Of a DNA stretch of 64,000 nucleotides, positions 54,563 through 64,000 are shown in pieces. The DNA is taken from positions 32,723-96,722 of the forward strand of contig CAJWEM010000001.1 in NCBI GenBank assembly GCA_913031205.1. Direction: 5' to 3'. Numbering within the stretch: position 1 is the stretch's first letter; each line of letters opens with the position of its first letter. The translations under genes were made by a program, and so were the position numbers. Below the pieces are notes generated by a model that did not search any database, had not been told where the DNA came from, and worked only from the letters and a program-made list of their open reading frames with translations. Source of the stretch: an uncultured Gammaproteobacteria bacterium. Lineage in GTDB: Bacteria; Pseudomonadota; Gammaproteobacteria; Poriferisulfidales; GCA-002705445.

Positions 54563-55303
54563 TTAATTTGTTTTCTCTAGTTCTTGCGCCCATTTTGCAA
54601 GATGTCTTTTCTCACGAGCATTATCAACCTGATTTCTCGATGGGCTAAAAAATAACCCAGGTGCATGTAACAATTTACTATATGGGAAAATTATCATTAA
54701 AAAAGCAACCATTACCAAATGAGAAATCAACACAAGGTCAGCTGGAATATTTTGTATATTAAATGTTAACAATCCTACAAAAAAAGATTTGACACTTATA
54801 ACATCAGCCCCAAGATAAAAACTCATTGCCATGCCTGTGGTTGTTATGCATAAAAGCAAAACTAAAATTAAGTGATCTGACGGAGCTGAAATATATCGAA
54901 CTCTATCTACAACTATTCTCCTCGCAAGTAATCCAGCTAATCCAACTAACATCAATATTGAGCCATATTTTCCAAAAGGTTGAATAATTACGACCCAAAA
55001 CCAAACGGGATCAATAAAATATCTCAGGTGTCTTAACATGTCTAAAAATAAACCAAAGTGAAAAAGCCAGCCAAACAACCAGGTGATCTTACTTGACTTA
55101 AAAAGGCTTTCAAAAAAAACAACCTCTTTAGACATTCTAAAAACAACACCCGCCTGCGTCGTAGGAGCAGGCATCGTTGGAATTTTAAGGGGCGCGGGCG
55201 TATTTTTGTATTGTAGAATTTTTACTACAAGACCGTACGCCAAAATAAAAAAAGCTATATAAAATAATGCAGCTATTGAAAAACTTAACATTGATATCTG
55301 CAT
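54563..55303 (-). CDS. dsrM: DsrM, NarI-like dihaem b membrane subunit
   Basis: 246 aa with 5-6 TM helices and conserved His in the helices (HFGLFLDMLRHLRYF; HLVMVAF). Confidence 0.85.
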   Translation of the reverse strand: MQISMLSFSIAALFYIAFFILAYGLVVKILQYKNTPAPLKIPTMPAPTTQAGVVFRMSKEVVFFESLFKSSKITWLFGWLFHFGLFLDMLRHLRYFIDPVWFWVVIIQPFGKYGSILMLVGLAGLLARRIVVDRVRYISAPSDHLILVLLLCITTTGMAMSFYLGADVISVKSFFVGLLTFNIQNIPADLVLISHLVMVAFLMIIFPYSKLLHAPGLFFSPSRNQVDNAREKRHLAKWAQELEKTN

Positions 55304-55319
55304 ATCCTACACTTCTACT

Positions 55320-55652
55320 TTATACGCAACCAGTTGGCTTAGGTAATCCTGCATATTTACAAGCTTGTTTAGCAGGTCCATATGGAAATAATTCATAAAG
55401 ATATTTACTATTTCCTTTATCTTTACCTAGTTTTTTACCAATTTGTTTTGTTAATACTCTAACAGCTGGAGCAATTTGGTATTCCTCGTAATACTCACGA
55501 AGAAAGTTAATTACTTCCCAATGGTTTTCTTCTAAAGGAGCACCATCTATTTCAGCCATTTTATTCGCGACATCGGTATCCCAGTCATTTAAATTTGCTA
55601 GATATCCTTCTTCGTCGACTTCGTATTGTTTACCATTTACTTCTAACGACAC
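55320..55652 (-). CDS. dsrC: DsrC, with both conserved C-terminal cysteines
   Basis: 110 aa. The C-terminus ...KQACKYAGLPKPTGCV carries CysB and the penultimate CysA of the flexible arm. Confidence 0.92.
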   Translation of the reverse strand: MSLEVNGKQYEVDEEGYLANLNDWDTDVANKMAEIDGAPLEENHWEVINFLREYYEEYQIAPAVRVLTKQIGKKLGKDKGNSKYLYELFPYGPAKQACKYAGLPKPTGCV

Positions 55653-55678
55653 ATTAACCTCCGGTTATTAAAAAAAAC

Positions 55679-55987
55679 TTATAGCCAAGATTGAACAGTT
55701 TTATGTTCAGTAGTTAGATCTACGAATTCGTCGTATCCAACTATCTCGACACCCTCTATCACATTATTTAAAGATAAGCCTCTTGCCTCCAAATCAGGTT
55801 TAAGGACATACATTTTAAATTCTTTTAAAGCATTTTCGATTAACTCTGAAAATTTTGTAGACTTCATGACCGATATCACGCCGTCTTCAATAAATAAAAT
55901 ACTGCTATCTTGAGAACACATTGCAATGCATGAAGACATTGTAGAATTTTCAAAAGGCGATTTGTTAATTGTGTGTAGCATATTCAT
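55679..55987 (-). CDS. dsrH: DsrH (sulfur relay, TusB-like)
   Basis: 102 aa. Positioned between dsrF and dsrC. DsrE/F/H fold by size and order. Confidence 0.8.
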   Translation of the reverse strand: MNMLHTINKSPFENSTMSSCIAMCSQDSSILFIEDGVISVMKSTKFSELIENALKEFKMYVLKPDLEARGLSLNNVIEGVEIVGYDEFVDLTTEHKTVQSWL

Positions 55988-55996
55988 ATTTTTTCT

Positions 55997-56413
55997 CTAA
56001 AAACTCAGGACAACATCTTGATTATTCATAATTTCTGATAACTCAGCTCTTGATACTAAGTTTATAGAGCTTTTTTCAGCATAATCTTCGTCTTCATCTT
56101 CCCAAACAAGCTCTTGTAGATCAGATAATGATAGACCTCTTTCTTCTAAGGATTCTTTATCGATAAATATTTTATTAATCTCGTAATCTCCCAATGCTGA
56201 GTATGTAGAAGAGAAATTCTTCATGCCTATGCCTTCTGTTTGCTGGCCTTTCATAAGCTGGTAAACTCCATCATCAGTAAATGTTAAGCTTACGTCTTGA
56301 TCAAATGCCGCAGTTATTAAAACAACTTCTAAAGATTCAAGTGCATAGATTGTCCCGTAAGGACTTTTTCTATTTACGTACATAAACTTTTTTACAACTC
56401 CATCTTCACTCAC
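55997..56413 (-). CDS. dsrF: DsrF (TusC-like)
   Basis: 138 aa. Sits in the dsrE-dsrF-dsrH order. Confidence 0.8.
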   Translation of the reverse strand: MSEDGVVKKFMYVNRKSPYGTIYALESLEVVLITAAFDQDVSLTFTDDGVYQLMKGQQTEGIGMKNFSSTYSALGDYEINKIFIDKESLEERGLSLSDLQELVWEDEDEDYAEKSSINLVSRAELSEIMNNQDVVLSF

Positions 56414-56417
56414 TTAT

Positions 56418-56810
56418 TTAATCTCCAAAAGTAATTAATCTATCTGCTTGAATTCCGGCCTCAACTAACTGTCCGAGCCCTGATATCCTAAAACCATCCT
56501 CAATGTTATCTGAGTCTTTGCCATTTCTTTCGGCCTCGCCTTTATCAAGGATTCCTCTTCTTTGAGCTGCCGCAACACAAACTACTAAATCAATCCCATG
56601 GTCCTTTGCTAAGGAGGCCCATTCTTTTGTAATATTTCTATCGTCTTGAGGTGGCGTAGCTAATCTTGTTGCATTATTAACACCATCATTATAGAAAAAC
56701 ACTCTGTATATTTCGTGACCTTTTTTTAAAGCAGCTTTAACATATTGAAGAGCTGTATCTGATGCTTGATGTTGGTATGGTCCTTCATTGATTAATATTC
56801 CTAATTTCAA
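56418..56810 (-). CDS. dsrE: DsrE (TusD-like, active-site Cys)
   Basis: 130 aa with MKLGILINEGPY and a conserved Cys in DLVVCVAAAQRRG. Confidence 0.85.
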   Translation of the reverse strand: MKLGILINEGPYQHQASDTALQYVKAALKKGHEIYRVFFYNDGVNNATRLATPPQDDRNITKEWASLAKDHGIDLVVCVAAAQRRGILDKGEAERNGKDSDNIEDGFRISGLGQLVEAGIQADRLITFGD

Positions 56811-56830
56811 AATATCTCCTCACTATTTTA

Positions 56831-57919
56831 TTAAAACCTAATGTGTGTTGAAGCATTAAGACTGTTTCTTGCTCCTTTCCAGTTATTGATATGGAATTTT
56901 GTGAATGGAAGACCTGTTAACTCAAAAAATCTTGGCCATCCTATTCTTTCAACCCAGTCACTAATTCTCTCCCAATCTCTGGCATCATCTCTATATGCTC
57001 TTAGTATTTTTTTTACAATCGCAGTAGCTTCTGGCCACCTTGGTGGATTATTAGGTATTCCCGCAGCAACTAATTTCTGAAAAGAAGGTTTGCCTCTTGC
57101 ATTAGAATGGTTTCCACCTACCCATACGGATAATTTTGTATGCTCTGCATCATTAATCTGCATTGGAGGACATGGAGGGAAACAAGCTCCACAACAAATA
57201 CATTTTTTCTCATCGACTTCTAAGGAAGGTTTTCCATTCACTTGTGCTGGTCGAATAGCTGCAACTGGACATCGAGCAACTACAGAAGGTCTCTCACAAA
57301 CATTGGAAACTAAATCGTGATTAATTTTTGGTGGCTTTGTGTGTTGAACATTAATAGCAATATCGCCTTGTCCACCACAATTAATCTGACAACAAGATGT
57401 AGTCATGTGAACTCTGTTCGGCATATTCCAACCTTTAAACTCATCTATTACTTCATCCATCATTGCTTTTACAACACCGGAAGCATCTGTTCCAGGTATA
57501 TCACAATGCAACCAACCTTGCGTATGAGAAATCATTGCAACTGAGTTTTTAGTTCCGCCAACAACGAAACCATTTTTTTCTAACTCTACAATCAATGGTC
57601 CGACTTTTGATTCTTGGTCGATCATATATTCGATATTACTTCTTATGGTAAATCTGACATAACCGTCAGCATACTTATCACCAATGTCGCATAAGATGTT
57701 TAGAGAAGTTACATCTAAAATTCTTTGAGTGCCTGCTCTCACAGTCCATATTGCATCACCACTGTGCGCAACATGCTTTAGTACTCCAGGCCTTGGATCT
57801 TCATGATATGCCCATTGCCCGTAGTTTTTGCGCATTACAGGATGCATATATTGAAATGCGTCTGGGCAACCGGATTCTATCGGTGGTCTATTTGCTTGCT
57901 CTGCTTGCTGTTCTGACAT
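56831..57919 (-). CDS. dsrB: dissimilatory sulfite reductase beta subunit (reverse/oxidative type)
   Basis: 362 aa with siroheme/Fe-S Cys motifs and a ferredoxin insert (CCQINCGGQGD, CPVAAIRP, CICCGACFPPCP). Confidence 0.92.
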   Translation of the reverse strand: MSEQQAEQANRPPIESGCPDAFQYMHPVMRKNYGQWAYHEDPRPGVLKHVAHSGDAIWTVRAGTQRILDVTSLNILCDIGDKYADGYVRFTIRSNIEYMIDQESKVGPLIVELEKNGFVVGGTKNSVAMISHTQGWLHCDIPGTDASGVVKAMMDEVIDEFKGWNMPNRVHMTTSCCQINCGGQGDIAINVQHTKPPKINHDLVSNVCERPSVVARCPVAAIRPAQVNGKPSLEVDEKKCICCGACFPPCPPMQINDAEHTKLSVWVGGNHSNARGKPSFQKLVAAGIPNNPPRWPEATAIVKKILRAYRDDARDWERISDWVERIGWPRFFELTGLPFTKFHINNWKGARNSLNASTHIRF

Positions 57920-57951
57920 CTTTCTCCCTTATTATGTAAATATTTTTGTTC

Positions 57952-59208
57952 TTATGCTTTTGCCGATGATTGAAGTTTATCCTTAAACCATTTCTCAGCT
58001 TCGTCATCCCATCCATCCATACGAACATAGGAACTAGTTGTAGGATCTGCGACCATGTTTGGATCAACATCAACACCAATGCCGTCGAGGAAATTAACAA
58101 GACCAATTCTTTCAATCATTTCACCACAACGCTCGTGTTCTAGTCCATTTTCAGCCCAGAAATCGATTGTTTCTTCGGCTAGCTCAGTAAGTTTTTCGTA
58201 ATCTTCTTCTGTATCAAGTTTCATGAACGGAATAATAACTGTACCCATTAAGTCACCAACTTTAAGTGTTCTCTTGCCGCCCATTAATATTGTTGCTCCT
58301 TTGTCATCCCCAGGACTTAATGCTTTCGGCATTACATTTAGACAATGCATACACTTAACACAATTTCTATTATCTACTTCGAGTGTGTCGTCGTCGTTGA
58401 GTGATAAGCAGTTTGTTGGGCATCTTGTAATTACATTATCAATTACATATTTTCGTCCTTTTGTCTCAACAAAATCTTTAACTTCATCTTGATCAACTTT
58501 CATATCATCTCGCCAAGTCCCTATAATCGCACAGTCTGCTCTTTCGATAGAGTTAACACAATCGTTTGGACATCCGGAAACTTTAAATTTAAATTTATAA
58601 GGCAATGCTGGTCTATGAACATCATCGGTAAAATTATTGAGAAGAGTTCTATGAATTTTAATTTCGTCTATATTGGATTGCTCACATCTTGCAGCACCAA
58701 CACAACACATGCCCGTTCTAACGCATGGTCCAGCACCACCAAGATCCCAACCATACTCATTAATTTCATCAAAAAAGTGTTGGGTGTTTTCAGTTGTAGA
58801 ACCGATAAACATGATATTACCAGTTTGACCATGGAAAGTTTGTAAGCCCGAGCCATGCTTCTCCCAACTTTCGCCAAGTTGTCTTAACATGTCAGTCGTA
58901 TAATAATTTCCGGCTGGAGGTTGTACTCTTAGAGTGTGGAATTCTTTTGATTCTGGAAAAGCATCTCCTACTTCGGAGAAACGAGGTATAATACCACTAC
59001 CATATCCAAACACACTTACAGTTCCGCCTTTCCAATAACCTTTTCTCGTTTCGTAAGAATGTTCCAATTGGCCAAGCAATGAGTTTGCCATGCCAGAAAT
59101 TCTTTCATTAGGATGTTGATCACGTAATCTTTTAAAGCCGGAAATGAAACTAGGCCATGGGCCGTGCTCCAGCTCATCTAACATTGGGGTTTTATGTTTA
59201 TCCGCCAC
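57952..59208 (-). CDS. dsrA: dissimilatory sulfite reductase alpha subunit (reverse/oxidative type)
   Basis: 418 aa with CVRTGMCCVGAARCE siroheme-[4Fe-4S] coupling cysteines and a ferredoxin domain (CPNDCVNS; CPTNCLS; CVKCMHC). Confidence 0.92.
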   Translation of the reverse strand: MADKHKTPMLDELEHGPWPSFISGFKRLRDQHPNERISGMANSLLGQLEHSYETRKGYWKGGTVSVFGYGSGIIPRFSEVGDAFPESKEFHTLRVQPPAGNYYTTDMLRQLGESWEKHGSGLQTFHGQTGNIMFIGSTTENTQHFFDEINEYGWDLGGAGPCVRTGMCCVGAARCEQSNIDEIKIHRTLLNNFTDDVHRPALPYKFKFKVSGCPNDCVNSIERADCAIIGTWRDDMKVDQDEVKDFVETKGRKYVIDNVITRCPTNCLSLNDDDTLEVDNRNCVKCMHCLNVMPKALSPGDDKGATILMGGKRTLKVGDLMGTVIIPFMKLDTEEDYEKLTELAEETIDFWAENGLEHERCGEMIERIGLVNFLDGIGVDVDPNMVADPTTSSYVRMDGWDDEAEKWFKDKLQSSAKA

Positions 59209-59415
59209 TCTATTCTCCTTACATTATCATTATATTTATCTCCAGATAATAATATTTTATGGGTTATTTTTAGGTAATGACATCGTACCTTTGGGAGGGC
59301 GGTTATATCTCTTTTGAACTTTGTCTCATATCTCTATATGGATATAACTTAAAATGCTCGATTTTTGTAAATCATTGAATATATAATCAATTAACTTTAT
59401 CAAATTTAAAATCAA

Positions 59416-60300
59416 ATGTCATATAGTCATAAAATTAATTCTCCTTTTCTACTTGAGAACGAAACAGATTATAAAAAATGGCGTAATGAAAAACTTTCAC
59501 TATATCCAGAGAGTATTTCAAATCTTCTTATTCAACTTAATAAAGACAGTTTGTTATTGAACGATTTAAATAGTATAAAAAAAATTATTGGAAAATATAA
59601 TTTTGCGGTTTACGAATTTAACTCAAAAATCGATGATGAATTTTTGCAAGAATTTTGTAAGAAACTTAAACTTATTGAGTCGGTATCAAATCCTTTATCA
59701 GATATAAATAATATTTCGAATATTACAGACAATTCAGCTTTTAAAAGTAATAACAGTAACAAAACTGAATATATTCCTTACACAAACAAAAAACTGAACT
59801 GGCATACGGATGGTTACTACTACCCAATAGATATTTCTGTAAAGTCTTTTTTACTTCACTGTGAAAGCCAAGCTGAACAAGGCGGGAGAAACTTTCTTAT
59901 AGATCATGAAATTATTTATATATTTCTTAGAGATCATAATCCTGATTACATTGATATCTTAATGCAAAAAGACATTATGGAAATTCCTAGAAATAAAAAC
60001 ATAAAAGATAGTAAAGCTATAAAAGGACCTGTATTTTATATTGATAAAGATGGTAGTCTAAATATGAGATTCACATCAAGGAAACAAAATATTATTTGGA
60101 AAAAAGATGATATTATTAACGATATTAAAAGATTCATAGAAAGTTTTATTAACGATGATAAAAGGTATATTTTTGATTTGTTGCTTAAAGAAAACCAAGG
60201 TTATATAGCTAATAATATTTTACATAGGCGTGAGGAGTTCAATGATGGTAAGAAAAAAAGACTGCTTAAAAGAATACGTTTTTTGAATCGAGTGAGCTAA
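59416..60300 (+). CDS. TauD/TfdA-family Fe(II)/2-oxoglutarate dioxygenase-like protein
   Basis: 294 aa with an HxD facial-triad motif NWHTDGYYYP and a distal HRR (ANNILHRREEF), spaced as in TauD-family enzymes. Confidence 0.6.
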   Translation: MSYSHKINSPFLLENETDYKKWRNEKLSLYPESISNLLIQLNKDSLLLNDLNSIKKIIGKYNFAVYEFNSKIDDEFLQEFCKKLKLIESVSNPLSDINNISNITDNSAFKSNNSNKTEYIPYTNKKLNWHTDGYYYPIDISVKSFLLHCESQAEQGGRNFLIDHEIIYIFLRDHNPDYIDILMQKDIMEIPRNKNIKDSKAIKGPVFYIDKDGSLNMRFTSRKQNIIWKKDDIINDIKRFIESFINDDKRYIFDLLLKENQGYIANNILHRREEFNDGKKKRLLKRIRFLNRVS

Positions 60301-60303
60301 AAA

Positions 60304-60495
60304 ATGTTAACACTGAGTGAAATTTTAATAACAGAATATAAGATGAAGTCCTATAAGGAGCTTAGAAATTTTATATTAAAGAAAATAGATGAAGGCGAGA
60401 GGTTCCTGTCTATAGATATCAAACCAAGTTTTGAAGATACTCCCGACCATTGGGAAACCGATTTAGAAAACTTATTTACCTCACCAAGAAATTAA
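60304..60495 (+). CDS. small hypothetical protein (63 aa)
   Basis: Starts 3 bp after the TauD-like stop and ends 4 bp before the next gene, so it is embedded in the operon. No motif. Confidence 0.4.
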   Translation: MLTLSEILITEYKMKSYKELRNFILKKIDEGERFLSIDIKPSFEDTPDHWETDLENLFTSPRN

Positions 60496-60499
60496 GCTT

Positions 60500-61180
60500 A
60501 TGTATTGGGAAGACGATGATCAAGAGAAGCAAAAGAAATCTAGTGAAAAAATCGTAGATATATCTTTTAAAGTAAATTGCAATAAAATTGCAGCTGATCA
60601 TGCATACGATTTATTTCAAGCTGTTTCAAAAAGATTCCCAAAGATTAATACTATTGATAATTTAGCTATTCACTCCGTTTATGGGGCAGAATCTGGTGCG
60701 GGATGGGAAAGACCAGAGACAGAAATTTACCTTTCAAAACGAACTCGATTTTGTATTCGCACACCTATTGAGCATTCTGAAGAATTTCATGATCTTAATG
60801 GAGAAACTTTAAAAATTGGAAAATATGAAATGTCATTTTCGAAGCCAACAATCAAAAAGTTAGGAATAACCGACACGCTATTTTGCAGAACAGTTGTTGT
60901 TGAAAATAATAATAGCGAAGAAGAATTCCTGAAAGATGTAAGTTTATCCTTAGCTGAGATGAGTATCAGTGTTAAAAAAATGCTTTGTGGAAAAGAGCAT
61001 ATTATTCAAACTCCAAATAAGGCATTAGTCGGAAAAACCCTTCTAATAACTGACCTGGAGAAACATGACTCAATTAAATTACAAGAGCTCGGAATAGGTA
61101 TTGGAAAATTATTTGGATGTGGTATCTTTTTACCTCATAAAAGTATAGCTCCTGTAGCTATCTCGAAAAGTAATGAATAA
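60500..61180 (+). CDS. orphan Cas6-like RAMP protein (no CRISPR array or other cas genes in window)
   Basis: 226 aa. The C-terminal glycine-rich loop GIGIGKLFGCGIF fits the Cas6 consensus GhGxxxxxGhG exactly, at the expected position about 20 aa from the C-terminus. The N-terminus has a beta-strand followed by a His-containing helix (IVDISFKV...AADHAYDLFQAV), like the Cas6 catalytic-His region. Confidence 0.5.
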   Translation: MYWEDDDQEKQKKSSEKIVDISFKVNCNKIAADHAYDLFQAVSKRFPKINTIDNLAIHSVYGAESGAGWERPETEIYLSKRTRFCIRTPIEHSEEFHDLNGETLKIGKYEMSFSKPTIKKLGITDTLFCRTVVVENNNSEEEFLKDVSLSLAEMSISVKKMLCGKEHIIQTPNKALVGKTLLITDLEKHDSIKLQELGIGIGKLFGCGIFLPHKSIAPVAISKSNE

Positions 61181-61203
61181 CATAATTTGTCAAGGAGGTT
61201 AAA

Positions 61204-61545
61204 ATGCCAACAATCGAAATAGCAGGAAAACAAATTGAAACAACAGACATGGGATACTTGATTAACGCCGAAGATTGGTCCGAGGACTTAGCCAAAGAAA
61301 TCGCAGCAAACGAAAAATTGGAATTAACCGAAAGGCATTGGGATGTAATCAACCATTTGAGAGATGAATTTTTTAATAATGGCGGTAATCAACCTAATAC
61401 GAGAAAACTTTGTAAATACTTTGAAAAACTTTGGGGTGAAAAAATTGATGCAAAAGTTCTTTATGATCTTTTCCCTGGGGATCCAAGCAAACAAGGTGGA
61501 AGAATATCTGGTTTACCAGAAAGCCGAAGAAAAGGTGGGTACTAA
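61204..61545 (+). CDS. DsrC/TusE-family paralog lacking both catalytic cysteines
   Basis: 113 aa. It aligns along its whole length with the dsrC at 55320-55652 (GKQ.E....GYL.N..DW..D.A..IA......L.E.HW.VIN.LR......G..P..R.L.K......G.K......LY.LFP..P.KQ....SGLP). The C-terminus is ...KQGGRISGLPESRRKGGY, so CysB and CysA are replaced. Confidence 0.8.
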   Translation: MPTIEIAGKQIETTDMGYLINAEDWSEDLAKEIAANEKLELTERHWDVINHLRDEFFNNGGNQPNTRKLCKYFEKLWGEKIDAKVLYDLFPGDPSKQGGRISGLPESRRKGGY

Positions 61546-61622
61546 ATAACTCAATATAATTGTTGTAGATTTTTTACACTAATTTGGGATATTATATATC
61601 CATAGTTTATATGGGGTGGATT

Positions 61623-61829
61623 ATGAGTGAAGATAAACAAGAGAAAATAAAAAAACTTCTCGCGATGCAAAAAAAATTTATTGCACTGGATCGAGAACAA
61701 GGTGTCGAAGCGTCTGAGTATTTTTCTCCGGATGACGATTCTGAAATAGCGGGATTTAGAGAAGAGTATAGGGATTTGGCAATGGATATTGTTGACCTTG
61801 CTCACAAAGACAAGGGCTCTAAAAAATAA
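61623..61829 (+). CDS. small acidic hypothetical protein (68 aa from ATG at 61623; track ORF starts at upstream TTG)
   Basis: MSEDKQEKIKKLLAMQKKFIALDREQGVEASEYFSPDDDSEIAGFREEYRDLAMDIVDLAHKDKGSKK, preceded by a GGGGTGGA purine-rich RBS. Confidence 0.45.
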   Translation: MSEDKQEKIKKLLAMQKKFIALDREQGVEASEYFSPDDDSEIAGFREEYRDLAMDIVDLAHKDKGSKK

Positions 61830-61833
61830 AAAA

Positions 61834-62154
61834 ATGTATGAACTTACAGTCATTCTCGGCGAGAATGAGTACCCTCTTAAAATAAAAGAAGCTATCGTAA
61901 ATGAGGCAGGGTCGTTTTTTGAAAAAATGGATTCAGATATGAATAAAGGCTGGCAAATGAGTAAAAATTGGGTTGAGAATCCAAGCCAATTTCAAAAATG
62001 CCAAATTGTTGCAGATCGTTTATTTACTTCAATACATCTTAATAAAAAGAAAACTGCTATTATGATGGCAGCTTATATAATCAATCAAATGCCAAATGTA
62101 AAAATTATTGATATTGATATTTCTGGAAATATGGAAGAAACTTCTTTTTCATAA
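61834..62154 (+). CDS. hypothetical protein (106 aa from ATG at 61834)
   Basis: MYELTVILGENEYPLKIKEAIVNEAG... starts 5 bp after the previous stop. No motif recognised. Confidence 0.45.
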   Translation: MYELTVILGENEYPLKIKEAIVNEAGSFFEKMDSDMNKGWQMSKNWVENPSQFQKCQIVADRLFTSIHLNKKKTAIMMAAYIINQMPNVKIIDIDISGNMEETSFS

Positions 62155-62727
62155 CTAAGCAAAGACAACCCAAGTAGTTGCTATATATTTTTTACCACTA
62201 ATTACTTCTTTACCTCTATGCTTATGCGTCCAGAAAGGCGGGAAAAGAATCAACTTGCCTGTTTCTGGTTTAATACTGACATCCTGATAAAAAAATTCTG
62301 TTCCCCCGCCTTGGTCTTCACTTAGATCATTCAAGTAAAAGATCGCGACCAACTGTCGATAACTAAATTCATGACTGCCTCCATCAATATGCCAATGGTA
62401 AAATTGGCCTGGCTCAGTTCTTTGAATCGCATAACCCATGTCTTTGAAAGGCCCTTGAAAAAACTCAATTTCTCTTTTTAATCTTGCCAAAGATTTTGCT
62501 AAAACAGTAAAAAATAGTTTATCTACTTCTTTCCATTCTTTTTTACCGCTAATAAATAAATCTGTAGACTTTTTAATATTCAAATCTTCGTCTAGATTCT
62601 GCCCGATCTTACCTTGATAATGCTCGTCTTTGTTTTGCTCAAACAAATCTATAATAGTCTTACAATCTTGCTTATCAATTGCATTATCAAATTCAAATAT
62701 AAAAGTATTTGGCTTTATCTCTTTCAT
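62155..62727 (-). CDS. prolyl-4-hydroxylase-like Fe(II)/2-oxoglutarate oxygenase (small, 190 aa)
   Basis: HxD...H triad region YHWHIDGG...FWTHKHRGKEV, characteristic of the P4Hc/2OG-FeII_Oxy_3 fold. Confidence 0.65.
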   Translation of the reverse strand: MKEIKPNTFIFEFDNAIDKQDCKTIIDLFEQNKDEHYQGKIGQNLDEDLNIKKSTDLFISGKKEWKEVDKLFFTVLAKSLARLKREIEFFQGPFKDMGYAIQRTEPGQFYHWHIDGGSHEFSYRQLVAIFYLNDLSEDQGGGTEFFYQDVSIKPETGKLILFPPFWTHKHRGKEVISGKKYIATTWVVFA

Positions 62728-62774
62728 TCGTAATAATATATAATGTATTGAATTAATTTATTTAAAAGTCGTCA

Positions 62775-63329
62775 ATGAGTATACAAAGAATACATAGCGG
62801 TTGGAATCAAAAAGGTAAAAAAAGGCAGATTGGTCAAATTGCAAGTGCGTTGGCGGTTAGCATATGGAAAATATCAAAAAAAACTCTTCTGAATTTGGAA
62901 AATGAAGGATTTGATACTGACACATGGACAGATAGAATTGAGATACTTAGAGAAATTTCTTGTTTTCAAGTATACGTAACGATAAATGAGATAACTGGTT
63001 TTGATGACGAAAGAAAAATCGATTTTATTACTGATATTGCAAAGAAACTTAATGAAACAATAAATATAAACCAGGTTGATCTTAAAATCCCAAAAGAAAA
63101 TATTAAGGTAAAATTTATAAATCTTTTAAATGAAAGGATGGATGAATATACTGCGCTTGAATATAAAGATGAGCCAAGTTACAAAGCTAGCATAATTTTA
63201 GGTAATCATCTGATGCAACATATGGGTGAACTTGATAATAATTGGATTCGCATGTATGTAATTGATCAAGAGGTTCCAAAAATTTTGCAATCTCTTAGGC
63301 GCCCGATCAAGTCATTAGTTAATAAATAA
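62775..63329 (+). CDS. hypothetical protein (184 aa)
   Basis: Clean ORF. No recognisable motif. Confidence 0.4.
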   Translation: MSIQRIHSGWNQKGKKRQIGQIASALAVSIWKISKKTLLNLENEGFDTDTWTDRIEILREISCFQVYVTINEITGFDDERKIDFITDIAKKLNETININQVDLKIPKENIKVKFINLLNERMDEYTALEYKDEPSYKASIILGNHLMQHMGELDNNWIRMYVIDQEVPKILQSLRRPIKSLVNK

Positions 63330-63331
63330 GC

Positions 63332-63529
63332 CTATTTTTTCTTCCAATCGCCAATATTGGCTAAGTTATTCTCTTGGCCGTCCTCATAACCAGCATCATA
63401 TGCTTCGTTTGTTCTTTGCTCTTCTCTAGGAGGGTGTCCTAGAAACCCACCCTGCCAGCCGAGAATATATTCCTCGTCAACATCTTGTTCTTCCATTTTA
63501 ACAATGGCATTTCTATATGTTTCATTCAT
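63332..63529 (-). CDS. small acidic hypothetical protein (65 aa)
   Basis: ORF only. Acidic (EEQDVDEEY..EDGQEN). Confidence 0.3.
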   Translation of the reverse strand: MNETYRNAIVKMEEQDVDEEYILGWQGGFLGHPPREEQRTNEAYDAGYEDGQENNLANIGDWKKK

Positions 63530-63567
63530 AATATTTTCACCTTACTTTAATAAATATTTTATCAATT

Positions 63568-64000
63568 TTATTTTTTAAAAGCATTATAAAAAAATTCTTT
63601 TGCTTTTCCACTATCGATAGCCTTCTTAACTTGTTCAGCTGCACTAGTAAAACTAATTTGCTTTACAATTGATAAAGCCAAGGAACCAGTATAAATTAAC
63701 GTATCTTTTGCGGGCCCGTCTTCACCATTTAAAGCCTTAATTCCAATATCTGCAGCTTTTTCTGAAAAGTCTTGAACATTGATATCGCTTGAGATTTCAT
63801 CCAATTTAATTTCCTCAACTTTTTCTAATTCGGGTAACGGAACTGCTCTCATATTTTGAATAATTGAAATCTCTTTGGCATTAAATTTTGTGTCTTGCAT
63901 TTCACTGTTATCGACATAATAAAAAACTTTACCATCACCTCTTAAAGATGGAGAAACCCCACCTTCAACTCCTTTTACTAATATTGCGGAATCAAAGCCC
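63568..64000 (-). CDS. TrpD-family (glycosyltransferase family 3; TrpD2/YbiB-like) protein, C-terminal part; 5' end lies beyond window
   Basis: The track ORF starts at the internal Met at 63900. The same frame continues upstream to the window edge with no stop, reading ...GFDSAILVKGVEGGVSPSLRGDGKVFYYVDNSEMQDTKF... This and the C-terminal ...ALSIVKQISFTSAAEQVKKAIDSGKA resemble the middle and C-terminal regions of the TrpD domain in the trpDC gene at 26204. Confidence 0.55.
   Translation of the reverse strand, partial: GFDSAILVKGVEGGVSPSLRGDGKVFYYVDNSEMQDTKFNAKEISIIQNMRAVPLPELEKVEEIKLDEISSDINVQDFSEKAADIGIKALNGEDGPAKDTLIYTGSLALSIVKQISFTSAAEQVKKAIDSGKAKEFFYNAFKK

Follow-up and report, generated by a model that had tools for sequence, protein, structure and literature searches.

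What can a protein of the DsrC family do once both of its catalytic cysteines are gone? This question is raised by a gene at positions 61204–61545 of a 64,000-nt stretch of DNA from an uncultured gammaproteobacterium (assembly GCA_913031205.1, contig CAJWEM010000001.1; we refer to the whole of this stretch as the window). Oxidative Dsr is a major sulfur-oxidation route in oceans, sediments and symbioses, with DsrAB, DsrC, DsrEFH, DsrMKJOP, DsrL and DsrNRS as its known components, and we know of no dedicated regulator or DsrD-like effector of the pathway. The DsrC-like gene, the product of which ends in the residues KGGY, belongs to an accessory module that, in sulfur-oxidising members of the Gamma- and Betaproteobacteria, is set divergently from dsrAB. 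Our preferred reading, held tentatively (probability of roughly 0.35), is that the KGGY protein modulates, at the protein level, one of the client enzymes of DsrC, most likely DsrAB; both the binding partner and the direction of the effect are what we infer. Should the module serve to tune the activity of DsrAB or the expression of dsr, a gap in what is known of pathway control would be filled, perhaps with an oxygen-responsive mechanism. The features on which the argument turns are the following:

61204–61545, + strand: DsrC-like gene of the KGGY-tail subfamily, 113 aa, ATG start, without conserved Cys (Pfam/TIGR, AlphaFold2)
61193–61198, + strand: Shine–Dalgarno sequence AGGAGG, 5 nt ahead of the DsrC-like ATG (read directly from the sequence)
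61480–61542, + strand: C-terminal arm, residues 93–113 (DPSKQGGRISGLPESRRKGGY), with an invariant RKGGY tip (alignment, codon use)
55320–55652, − strand: bona fide DsrC with CysB and CysA (…QACKYAGLPKPTGCV; BLASTP, Pfam, TIGR)

By sequence and fold, the product of the DsrC-like gene is a DsrC-fold protein of the DsrC/TusE/DsvC superfamily. It scores 108.5 bits against the Pfam family DsrC (PF04358; cut-off 24.9, E=2.8e-31) and 94.7 bits against TIGR03342 (cut-off 53.5), and shares 41% identity over 105 residues with the operon-encoded DsrC (BLASTP, E=7e-25), which bears out the preliminary description of the gene as a full-length DsrC paralog; the translation quoted there is likewise an exact match, ending in …DPSKQGGRISGLPESRRKGGY. 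The AlphaFold2 model, built on 19 homologs, has a predicted local distance difference test score (pLDDT) of 85, with just the last five residues disordered or flexible. As judged by Foldseek, the model matches Allochromatium vinosum DsrC (1yx3) with a template-modelling (TM) score of 0.83, a root-mean-square deviation (rmsd) of 1.6 Å and 43% identity; further matches are Archaeoglobus fulgidus DsrC (1sau, TM 0.86) and 2v4j_C (TM 0.76). The fold is thus that of DsrC, in which a beta-hairpin is joined to a helical bundle bearing a helix-turn-helix-like motif, with a flexible arm at the C-terminus. Core residues common to the two proteins in the alignment are LFPxxPxKQ and GLP, and the DsrC-like protein is acidic, as is DsrC (isoelectric point of 5.2). 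The NQPNTR loop and W77 are invariant residues specific to the subfamily. With A. vinosum DsrC the protein has in common the family, the fold, a flexible arm with the base LFPxxPxKQ...GLP and the dsr locus. It differs in lacking both CysA and CysB, in an arm that is two residues longer with an invariant RKGGY end, and in its genomic setting: while DsrC is encoded inside the dsr operon, where the slot in the window is occupied by 55320–55652, the DsrC-like gene lies outside of it on the opposite strand, together with Cas6-like and TauD-like genes.

TusE (PRK11508 / NF008562) belongs to the same family, and some databases call the KGGY proteins ‘tRNA 2-thiouridine synthesizing protein E’. The conserved C-terminal Cys of TusE takes sulfur from TusD; this penultimate Cys is required in TusE but missing in the KGGY proteins, and the DsrC-like protein scores 76 bits against the TusE equivalog NF008562, below the cut-off of 191. 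No tusBCD or mnmA genes are found among the neighbourhood genes of KGGY members.

The divergence from DsrC is concentrated in the arm, where …KQACKYAGLPKPTGCV of DsrC pairs with …KQGGRISGLPESRRKGGY of the DsrC-like protein. The position of CysB is taken by Gly in the window protein, leaving no CysB-X10-CysA pattern, and the DsrC tip ‘KPTGCV’ is swapped for ‘ESRRKGGY’, with two more residues and no Cys. CysA, the penultimate cysteine, is reported to be strictly maintained in every DsrC (PMC3397948); it is absent here, the tail reading …RKGGY. The replacement of both catalytic cysteines, as originally described, thus stands. The one remaining cysteine of the window protein, C70, is not conserved, and the majority of homologs are Cys-free. 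Because CysA and CysB are both missing, the protein cannot carry cysteine-bound sulfur, be it as a persulfide or as a trisulfide.

Loss of the cysteines has not meant loss of the arm. Across 159 independent loci there is no variation in the closing five residues, R-K-G-G-Y, whereas the codons behind them are saturated with synonymous variants (six for Arg, four for each Gly, two for Lys and two for Tyr), and the tip thus shows the signature of purifying selection. In the same loci the position aligned with CysB holds Gly, Arg or Thr, and the last three residues are always G-G-Y. One homolog (P0048) has a Cys at a variable arm position (RICGLPES) that is neither the CysA nor the CysB site, and a few betaproteobacterial members retain a Cys at the CysB position, yet end in KGGY. 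The arm has not simply been ‘lost’: it is re-specialised, and no other part of the protein varies so little.

The KGGY tail defines a large subfamily. A protein search returned 1,770 homologs, and at least 588 stretches in a one-genome-per-species collection encode a relative of the DsrC-like protein. The tail DPSKQGGRI[AGS]GLPES[RK]RKGGY is present in 118 of the 120 best homologs, with the other two being truncated or frameshifted entries; together with the invariance of RKGGY in the 159 loci, this excludes a sequencing error that, once corrected, would restore the cysteines. Further branches, recovered in a full hidden Markov model search of 1.84 billion cluster representatives, share the …KGGY end alone: GLPQSTRKGGY, GLPKSTRKGGY, GLPQVMRKGGY and GLPKP[YF]GKGGY. 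The last of these includes the betaproteobacterial arm GLPKPYGKGGY, which is nearly that of DsrC (GLPKPTGCV) apart from its new tip. In a neighbour-joining tree of the core alignment (tail excluded, without support values) the KGGY proteins fall on one side of a bipartition, and DsrC and TusE sequences on the other. Viewed in isolation, the missing catalytic cysteines might suggest that the gene is a decaying, non-functional dsrC duplicate, or an artefact of annotation or sequencing. The number of homologs and of stretches encoding them refutes this reading, and the invariant tail, the synteny across two classes and the confident fold prediction rule it out as well; we assign it a virtually negligible probability. 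The searchable literature yielded no account of a KGGY-tail DsrC or its module (a prior mention in Venceslau 2014 or Grimm 2010 is possible), and we provisionally consider both to be undescribed.

The genes surrounding the DsrC-like gene are these:

57952–59208, − strand: dsrA, at the head of dsrABEFHCMKL... (labelled by Pfam in the related locus L170, which has the same genes)
56831–57919, − strand: dsrB (likewise labelled by Pfam in L170)
59416–60300, + strand: TauD-family Fe(II)/2-oxoglutarate dioxygenase-like protein, 294 aa, leading the divergent operon (PF02668, E=9e-17)
60304–60495, + strand: conserved 63-aa protein, family not assigned by Pfam (kept in 53 loci)
60500–61180, + strand: Cas6/Cmx6-like protein, 226 aa, directly upstream of the DsrC-like gene (PF09559, TIGR02807)
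61611–61829, + strand: conserved small protein of ~67–72 aa, start uncertain (MSEDKQ... at 61623; a 72-aa gene in L170)
61834–62154, + strand: conserved 106-aa protein, no Pfam family (synteny)
62155–62727, − strand: prolyl-4-hydroxylase (P4H)-like 2-oxoglutarate-Fe(II) oxygenase, 190 aa (PF13640, E=1e-14)
62775–63329, + strand: conserved 184-aa protein, no Pfam family (synteny)
63332–63529: conserved 65-aa protein with the motif YILGWQGGYLGHP, preceding the TrpD2-like gene
63568–64000, − strand: TrpD2-like glycosyltransferase family 3 (PF02885 and PF00591), running past the window end

The DsrC-like gene is the fourth in a compact divergent cluster (59416–61545) that lies beyond dsrA on the strand opposite to the dsr operon. 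Between its start and the start codon of dsrA (59208) lie 1,996 bp, as against the 1.6 kb given before; the claim that it is divergent from dsrAB is right as to the strand, but the gene that directly faces dsrA is the first of the cluster, encoding the TauD-like protein. In NCBIfam the latter is matched best by gamma-butyrobetaine dioxygenase (E=6e-11), followed by trimethyllysine dioxygenase (E=2e-8), in both cases far under the cut-off, and the P4H-like protein matches the prolyl 4-hydroxylases 5c5t and 3itq in the PDB (E of ~1e-5). Pfam finds no families in the small ORFs (open reading frames) of 63, ~70, 106, 65 and 184 aa.

To follow this arrangement across Gammaproteobacteria, we compared the neighbourhood proteins with 80 genome loci by tblastn, counting among the loci with enough flanking sequence. 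The common layout is dsrKMC(HFE)BA and, divergent from it, TauD-like – orf63 – Cas6-like – DsrC-like – orf81. The Cas6-like gene is immediately 5′ of the DsrC-like gene in 63/76 loci, a ~70-aa ORF follows the DsrC-like gene in 60/76, and dsrA is divergent and at most 5 kb away in 62 of the 65 gammaproteobacterial loci. The P4H-like oxygenase is kept in the neighbourhood, with a second, weaker copy common in other loci, and the TrpD2-like gene, the full-length product of which is 368 aa (L001:10363–11469), is conserved at its edge. In a sister clade from sediment (QSTRKGGY; 80 metagenome loci) the arrangement is unchanged. The proteins of the cluster have diverged at very different rates: the median identity to the window proteins in other genera is 70% for the DsrC-like protein, 38% for the Cas6-like, 35% for the TauD-like and 43–47% for the small ORFs, as compared to 81–86% for DsrA, DsrB and DsrC.

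The module extends to Betaproteobacteria (Thiobacillus sp., Hydrogenophilales), where the order next to dsrA is DUF6967 – Cas6 – DsrC(KGGY) – rhodanese – 206-aa ORF – TauD-like. The check on conservation next to dsr in related genomes that was proposed earlier is thus positive in the gammaproteobacterial loci, in their sister clade and in a second class, and both refuting conditions named there, a sequencing error and absence or lack of synteny in relatives, are rejected. The 206-aa product in the Thiobacillus cluster (L162:9298–9918) is a homolog of the window 184-aa protein (28% identity, E=6e-26), and the two TauD-like proteins are 37% identical. Directly 3′ of the KGGY gene in Betaproteobacteria is a two-domain rhodanese (L162:8424–9278, L165:6405–7256, L168:6424–7272), which ties the module to sulfur trafficking; it is absent from the gammaproteobacterial cluster. 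The 63-aa protein sits where Betaproteobacteria have DUF6967. Homology between the two was considered and is not demonstrated: BLASTP returned nothing and hhalign a probability of 7%.

In the sponge symbionts Ca. Porisulfidus the DsrC-like gene alone remains; it faces dsrA directly and divergently, across a 317-bp spacer in L018. A KSTRKGGY group and some alphaproteobacterial members are not adjacent to dsr. A scan of 2.9 million viral contigs yielded a single contig matching two peptide patterns specific to the subfamily, which leads us to reject the KGGY subfamily as a common auxiliary metabolic gene of phages. This contig (IMGVR_UViG_3300032087_002997) carries a KGGY DsrC-like gene (L081:5974–6315), the product of which is 86% identical to the window protein. 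It also encodes a Mom-like DNA modification protein, a phage endonuclease and members of several PHROG families, while the genes of the host cluster are absent. It looks like a genuine phage, and its KGGY gene may be a rare auxiliary metabolic gene.

The closest companion of the DsrC-like gene is a Cas6 homolog. The protein scores 186 bits against PF09559 (E=8e-55) and 124.8 bits against TIGR02807, above the cut-off of 98.85; a sequence search finds PDB 8fcj_B (E=7e-10), and the AlphaFold2 model (pLDDT 85) superimposes on the type I-B CAST Cas6 8fcu_B with TM scores of 0.79/0.84 and an rmsd of 1.9 Å, in agreement with the two RRM-like domains of the Cas6 fold. It retains the G-rich loop GIGIGKLFGCG and an invariant His34 in the first helix; R71, R81, R87, R130 and K214 are further invariant residues, and there is a subfamily-specific insertion, ESGxGWxRP. 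Thus, while the protein is like Cas6/Cmx6 (type I-MYXAN / I-B, 8fcj/8fcu) in family thresholds, fold, G-rich loop and helix-1 His, it differs in carrying the insertion and in being a partner of dsr, always encoded beside a DsrC-like gene and dsrAB with neither an array nor other cas genes. A search for CRISPR arrays in the window and 160 related loci (1.66 Mb) gave none, nor are there cas Pfam families among the called neighbours of the Cas6-like gene, and for this reason the protein appears to be a Cas6 fold that was exapted and is CRISPR-independent. If the module does tune DsrAB activity or dsr expression, this would be a clear case of Cas6 exapted for a non-immune role. We found no description of an association of Cas6 with dsr in the searchable literature, which did not cover several key subscription papers.

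As to what the Cas6-like protein might bind, an Rfam scan of 55000–64000 (E≤1) returned nothing, and no conserved RNA hairpin that could serve as its substrate was found in related loci. The gap between the Cas6-like and DsrC-like genes is 23–25 nt. The hairpins in this intergenic region vary by clade and are followed by a -10 box like TATTAGAAT; given this variation and the -10 box behind it, they look like a terminator plus the DsrC-like gene's own promoter.

The intergenic region shared by dsrA and the TauD-like gene holds one more conserved feature:

59329–59344: operator-like palindrome TATCTCTATATGGATA, consensus TATCYC-N4-GRGATA, 16 bp, with one mismatch, between dsrA and the TauD-like gene

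This is the only match in the 64 kb of the window, and as a lone match with one mismatch it is not significant by itself (at least one is found in 37/100 shuffles). Across loci, the palindrome with at most two mismatches is present in 79 of 93 dsrA-upstream regions, the Porisulfidus loci included, nearly always as a single match at a fixed place. Of the 55 exact matches in 1.6 Mb of loci, 53 are upstream of dsrA (50 in 36 kb of extracted intergenic regions and three in further dsrA intergenic regions), and the remaining two are upstream of the 65-aa neighbourhood gene. The dsrA promoters in these counts all come from KGGY-bearing loci. The palindrome abuts or overlaps a TAnnnT -10-like hexamer on the dsrA strand, and we regard TATCYC-N4-GRGATA as a candidate, operator-like element of the dsrA promoter. 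It is absent from one clade with very short intergenic regions, though the KGGY gene is kept there; upstream of dsrA in Betaproteobacteria (Thiobacillus loci) the exact motif is absent, while related GGGTA/TACCC inverted repeats are present, which is suggestive only. A second conserved element (CGTACCTTTGGGAGGGCGG; ...CCTACCYWTGGGGTG...) lies 20–45 nt nearer to dsrA than the palindrome (window ~59285–59305; for example, L101 ~1265–1290). Its right half, TGGGGTG, is invariant and its left half varies without compensatory change; we therefore rejected it as an RNA stem, and it looks more like a protein or promoter element.

How, then, might the KGGY protein act? As a modulator, it would dock in the manner of DsrC into a DsrC-client enzyme, most likely DsrAB, where its non-reactive arm would insert and modulate the oxidative sulfite reductase (by gating, activating or protecting it) instead of carrying sulfur. 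Since RKGGY is invariant, the arm tip is probably the working end of the protein, as it is in DsrC. The arm may still enter the active site or a pocket of a partner, as suggested by the flexible and invariant tip taken together with the near-identity of the betaproteobacterial arm to that of DsrC, and the closeness of GLPKPYGKGGY to GLPKPTGCV speaks for a docking channel of a like kind. The DsrC-like protein evolves far more slowly than the other products of its operon, as would suit a protein that partners a conserved enzyme in stoichiometric amounts. Its DsrC fold, the core residues it has kept from DsrC and the divergent placing of its gene relative to dsrA in the gammaproteobacterial loci, the sister clade and Thiobacillus and Hydrogenophilales count in favour of the modulator too. 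A protein-level role is favoured by this conservation, by the acidity of the protein, by its persistence alone beside dsrA in reduced symbionts and by the lone phage copy; phages carry DsrC-type effectors. Modification of the arm by the oxygenases encoded alongside is conceivable, as is a link between the module and dsr mRNA by way of the Cas6-like protein.

The role envisaged would be functionally analogous to that of DsrD in sulfate reducers. DsrD is small, non-catalytic and helix-turn-helix (HTH)-like, is encoded with dsrAB and was long suspected to be a DNA-binding regulator; to our knowledge, oxidative Dsr systems are without it. The analogy is one of function, as the winged-helix fold of DsrD is unrelated to the DsrC fold of the KGGY protein. 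In sulfate/sulfite reducers, DsrD turned out to activate DsrAB allosterically (PMC8794893). The RspA group, non-canonical DsrC-family members that have been proposed to be regulatory, offers another comparison: PMC8477390 names RspA, and a figure legend on DiSCo there speaks of a ‘strictly conserved cysteine’ across DsrC/TusE/RspA. As the KGGY protein is missing this cysteine, its identity with RspA is doubtful.

Four observations weigh against a modulator of this kind. In sulfite reductases, basic residues line the channel for sulfite, and the basic gammaproteobacterial arm (SRRK) would disfavour deep insertion into it. A purely protein-level role leaves unexplained why the gene is so tightly and anciently paired with that of a Cas6-like RNA-binding protein. 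The divergent layout with a palindrome in the shared intergenic region would look like that of an autoregulated transcription factor. Finally, some alphaproteobacterial KGGY members adjoin Rrf2-type regulators and Tex and are not beside dsr.

The last three of these observations lead to the main rival, which we consider possible, if rather unlikely: a regulator of dsr that acts on nucleic acids. In one variant, the HTH-like region and basic tail would bind TATCYC-N4-GRGATA at the dsrA promoter; in the other, a ribonucleoprotein formed with the Cas6-like protein would bind or process dsr mRNA, setting the relative levels of dsrAB, dsrEFH and dsrC. Binding of DNA at the dsrA promoter is possible, in line with the regulatory role that the preliminary description had called plausible, and Grimm et al. 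2010 reportedly observed binding of DsrC itself to dsr promoter DNA. Such a regulator would account for a gene that is divergent from dsrA across a shared intergenic region and is the sole one kept there in Ca. Porisulfidus, for a palindrome that is near-exclusive to dsrA upstream regions and overlaps a -10-like hexamer, for a partner that keeps the Cas6 fold, the G-rich RNA-binding loop and the invariant His/Arg at a tight spacing of 23–25 nt, and for the Rrf2 and Tex neighbours in Alphaproteobacteria. Also in its favour, dsrEFH and dsrC transcripts are reported to exceed those of dsrA in A. vinosum (PMC3397948, citing Grimm 2010). However, the DsrC-like protein is acidic and more conserved than typical transcription factors, and its invariant RKGGY tip is hard to fit with DNA contact mediated by an HTH. 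The short-intergenic clade keeps the gene without the palindrome, and Ca. Porisulfidus has gene and palindrome but no Cas6-like gene nearby, from which it follows that neither is obligatory. An RNA target is further disfavoured by the failure to find a conserved hairpin or an Rfam match and by the TGGGGTG element varying without compensatory changes, and the precedent of DsrD (PMC8794893) points to the protein level.

The arm could instead be a substrate of the TauD-like and P4H-like oxygenases, with Lys110, Arg109 or Pro105 hydroxylated or otherwise modified, the outcome being a new functional group on a swinging arm or an O2-dependent switch of Dsr. While this agrees with the co-conservation of the TauD-like and DsrC-like genes in the gamma- and betaproteobacterial clusters, with the P4H-like oxygenase being kept in the gammaproteobacterial neighbourhood, with the invariance of Lys, Arg and Pro in the arm, with the rhodanese beside the KGGY gene in Betaproteobacteria and with the enzymes acting on gamma-butyrobetaine and trimethyllysine being the best, if weak, matches of the TauD-like protein, we consider it unlikely: these matches are far under the cut-offs, neither Ca. 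Porisulfidus nor the phage contig has such enzymes nearby, and the Cas6-like partner is left unexplained. A bolder version, to which we give little credence, is a cysteine-independent swinging arm, on which the Lys, or the Gly-Gly after removal of Tyr, would be turned into a sulfur- or redox-active group, with production coupled to dsr mRNA by the exapted Cas6. The candidate modifiers would be the TauD-like and P4H-like oxygenases plus the betaproteobacterial rhodanese, and possible products a lipoyl-lysine-like modified lysine (compare sHdr/LbpA) or a C-terminal thiocarboxylate; if true, oxidative Dsr would have a second carrier, one independent of cysteine. The ubiquitin-like sulfur carriers (ThiS/MoaD/CysO/QbsE), with which a thiocarboxylate invites comparison, have a beta-grasp fold and end in a Gly-Gly that an E1-like enzyme adenylates and that becomes thiocarboxylated, whereas the KGGY protein has the DsrC fold and a Tyr behind its GG, and no ThiF/MoeB-like or JAMM genes are found in the KGGY clusters. 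Least probable of the live readings is the competitive decoy that the preliminary description had entertained, which would sequester DsrEFH, or a tRNA thiolation relay of the TusBCD/MnmA type, without accepting sulfur. The DsrC/TusE fold, the arm base and the adjacency to dsrEFH-containing operons would suit a decoy, but the interaction between DsrC and DsrEFH is reported to depend strictly on CysA of DsrC and Cys78 of DsrE (PMC3397948), and both the TusE equivalog score and the lack of tus/mnmA genes in the neighbourhood speak against the tRNA variant.

Whichever way the KGGY protein acts, its annotation has practical consequences. Automated pipelines label one of the two genes ‘TusE/DsrC sulfur relay protein’ and the other ‘type I-MYXAN CRISPR-associated Cas6/Cmx6’, which inflates the counts of both dsrC and CRISPR-Cas in metagenomes. 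The label ‘type I-MYXAN CRISPR-associated protein Cas6/Cmx6’ is assigned to the Cas6-like gene by the NCBI equivalog rule and in the annotation of metagenome-assembled genomes, and gives rise to spurious calls of CRISPR-Cas in sulfur oxidisers.

Several minor observations were made along the way. The TauD-like and P4H-like genes place two O2-dependent oxygenases beside dsr. In one locus, from a 3.6-Mb gammaproteobacterial genome, a gene of the DDAH/arginine-deiminase family, a family of side-chain-modifying enzymes (L169:8487–9437, − strand), is placed together with a gene for a DUF6866 protein between the small ORF and the P4H-like oxygenase. Some loci have a third DsrC-family paralog near the cluster (L024:8329–8658, L067:7281–7610, L028:11429–11716, and in L047, L066 and L075), with tails of two types, one TusE-like (…GLPRPKGCS) and the other Cys-less but different from the KGGY tail (…ACKIAGMRQPKKLWLDL). 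Elsewhere in the window, and unrelated to the DsrC-like gene, a 15-nt tandem repeat, CTTTTTTGGTTGTTG, is present in ~4–5 copies at 507–581, in or near the ORF at 496–1437 (− strand).

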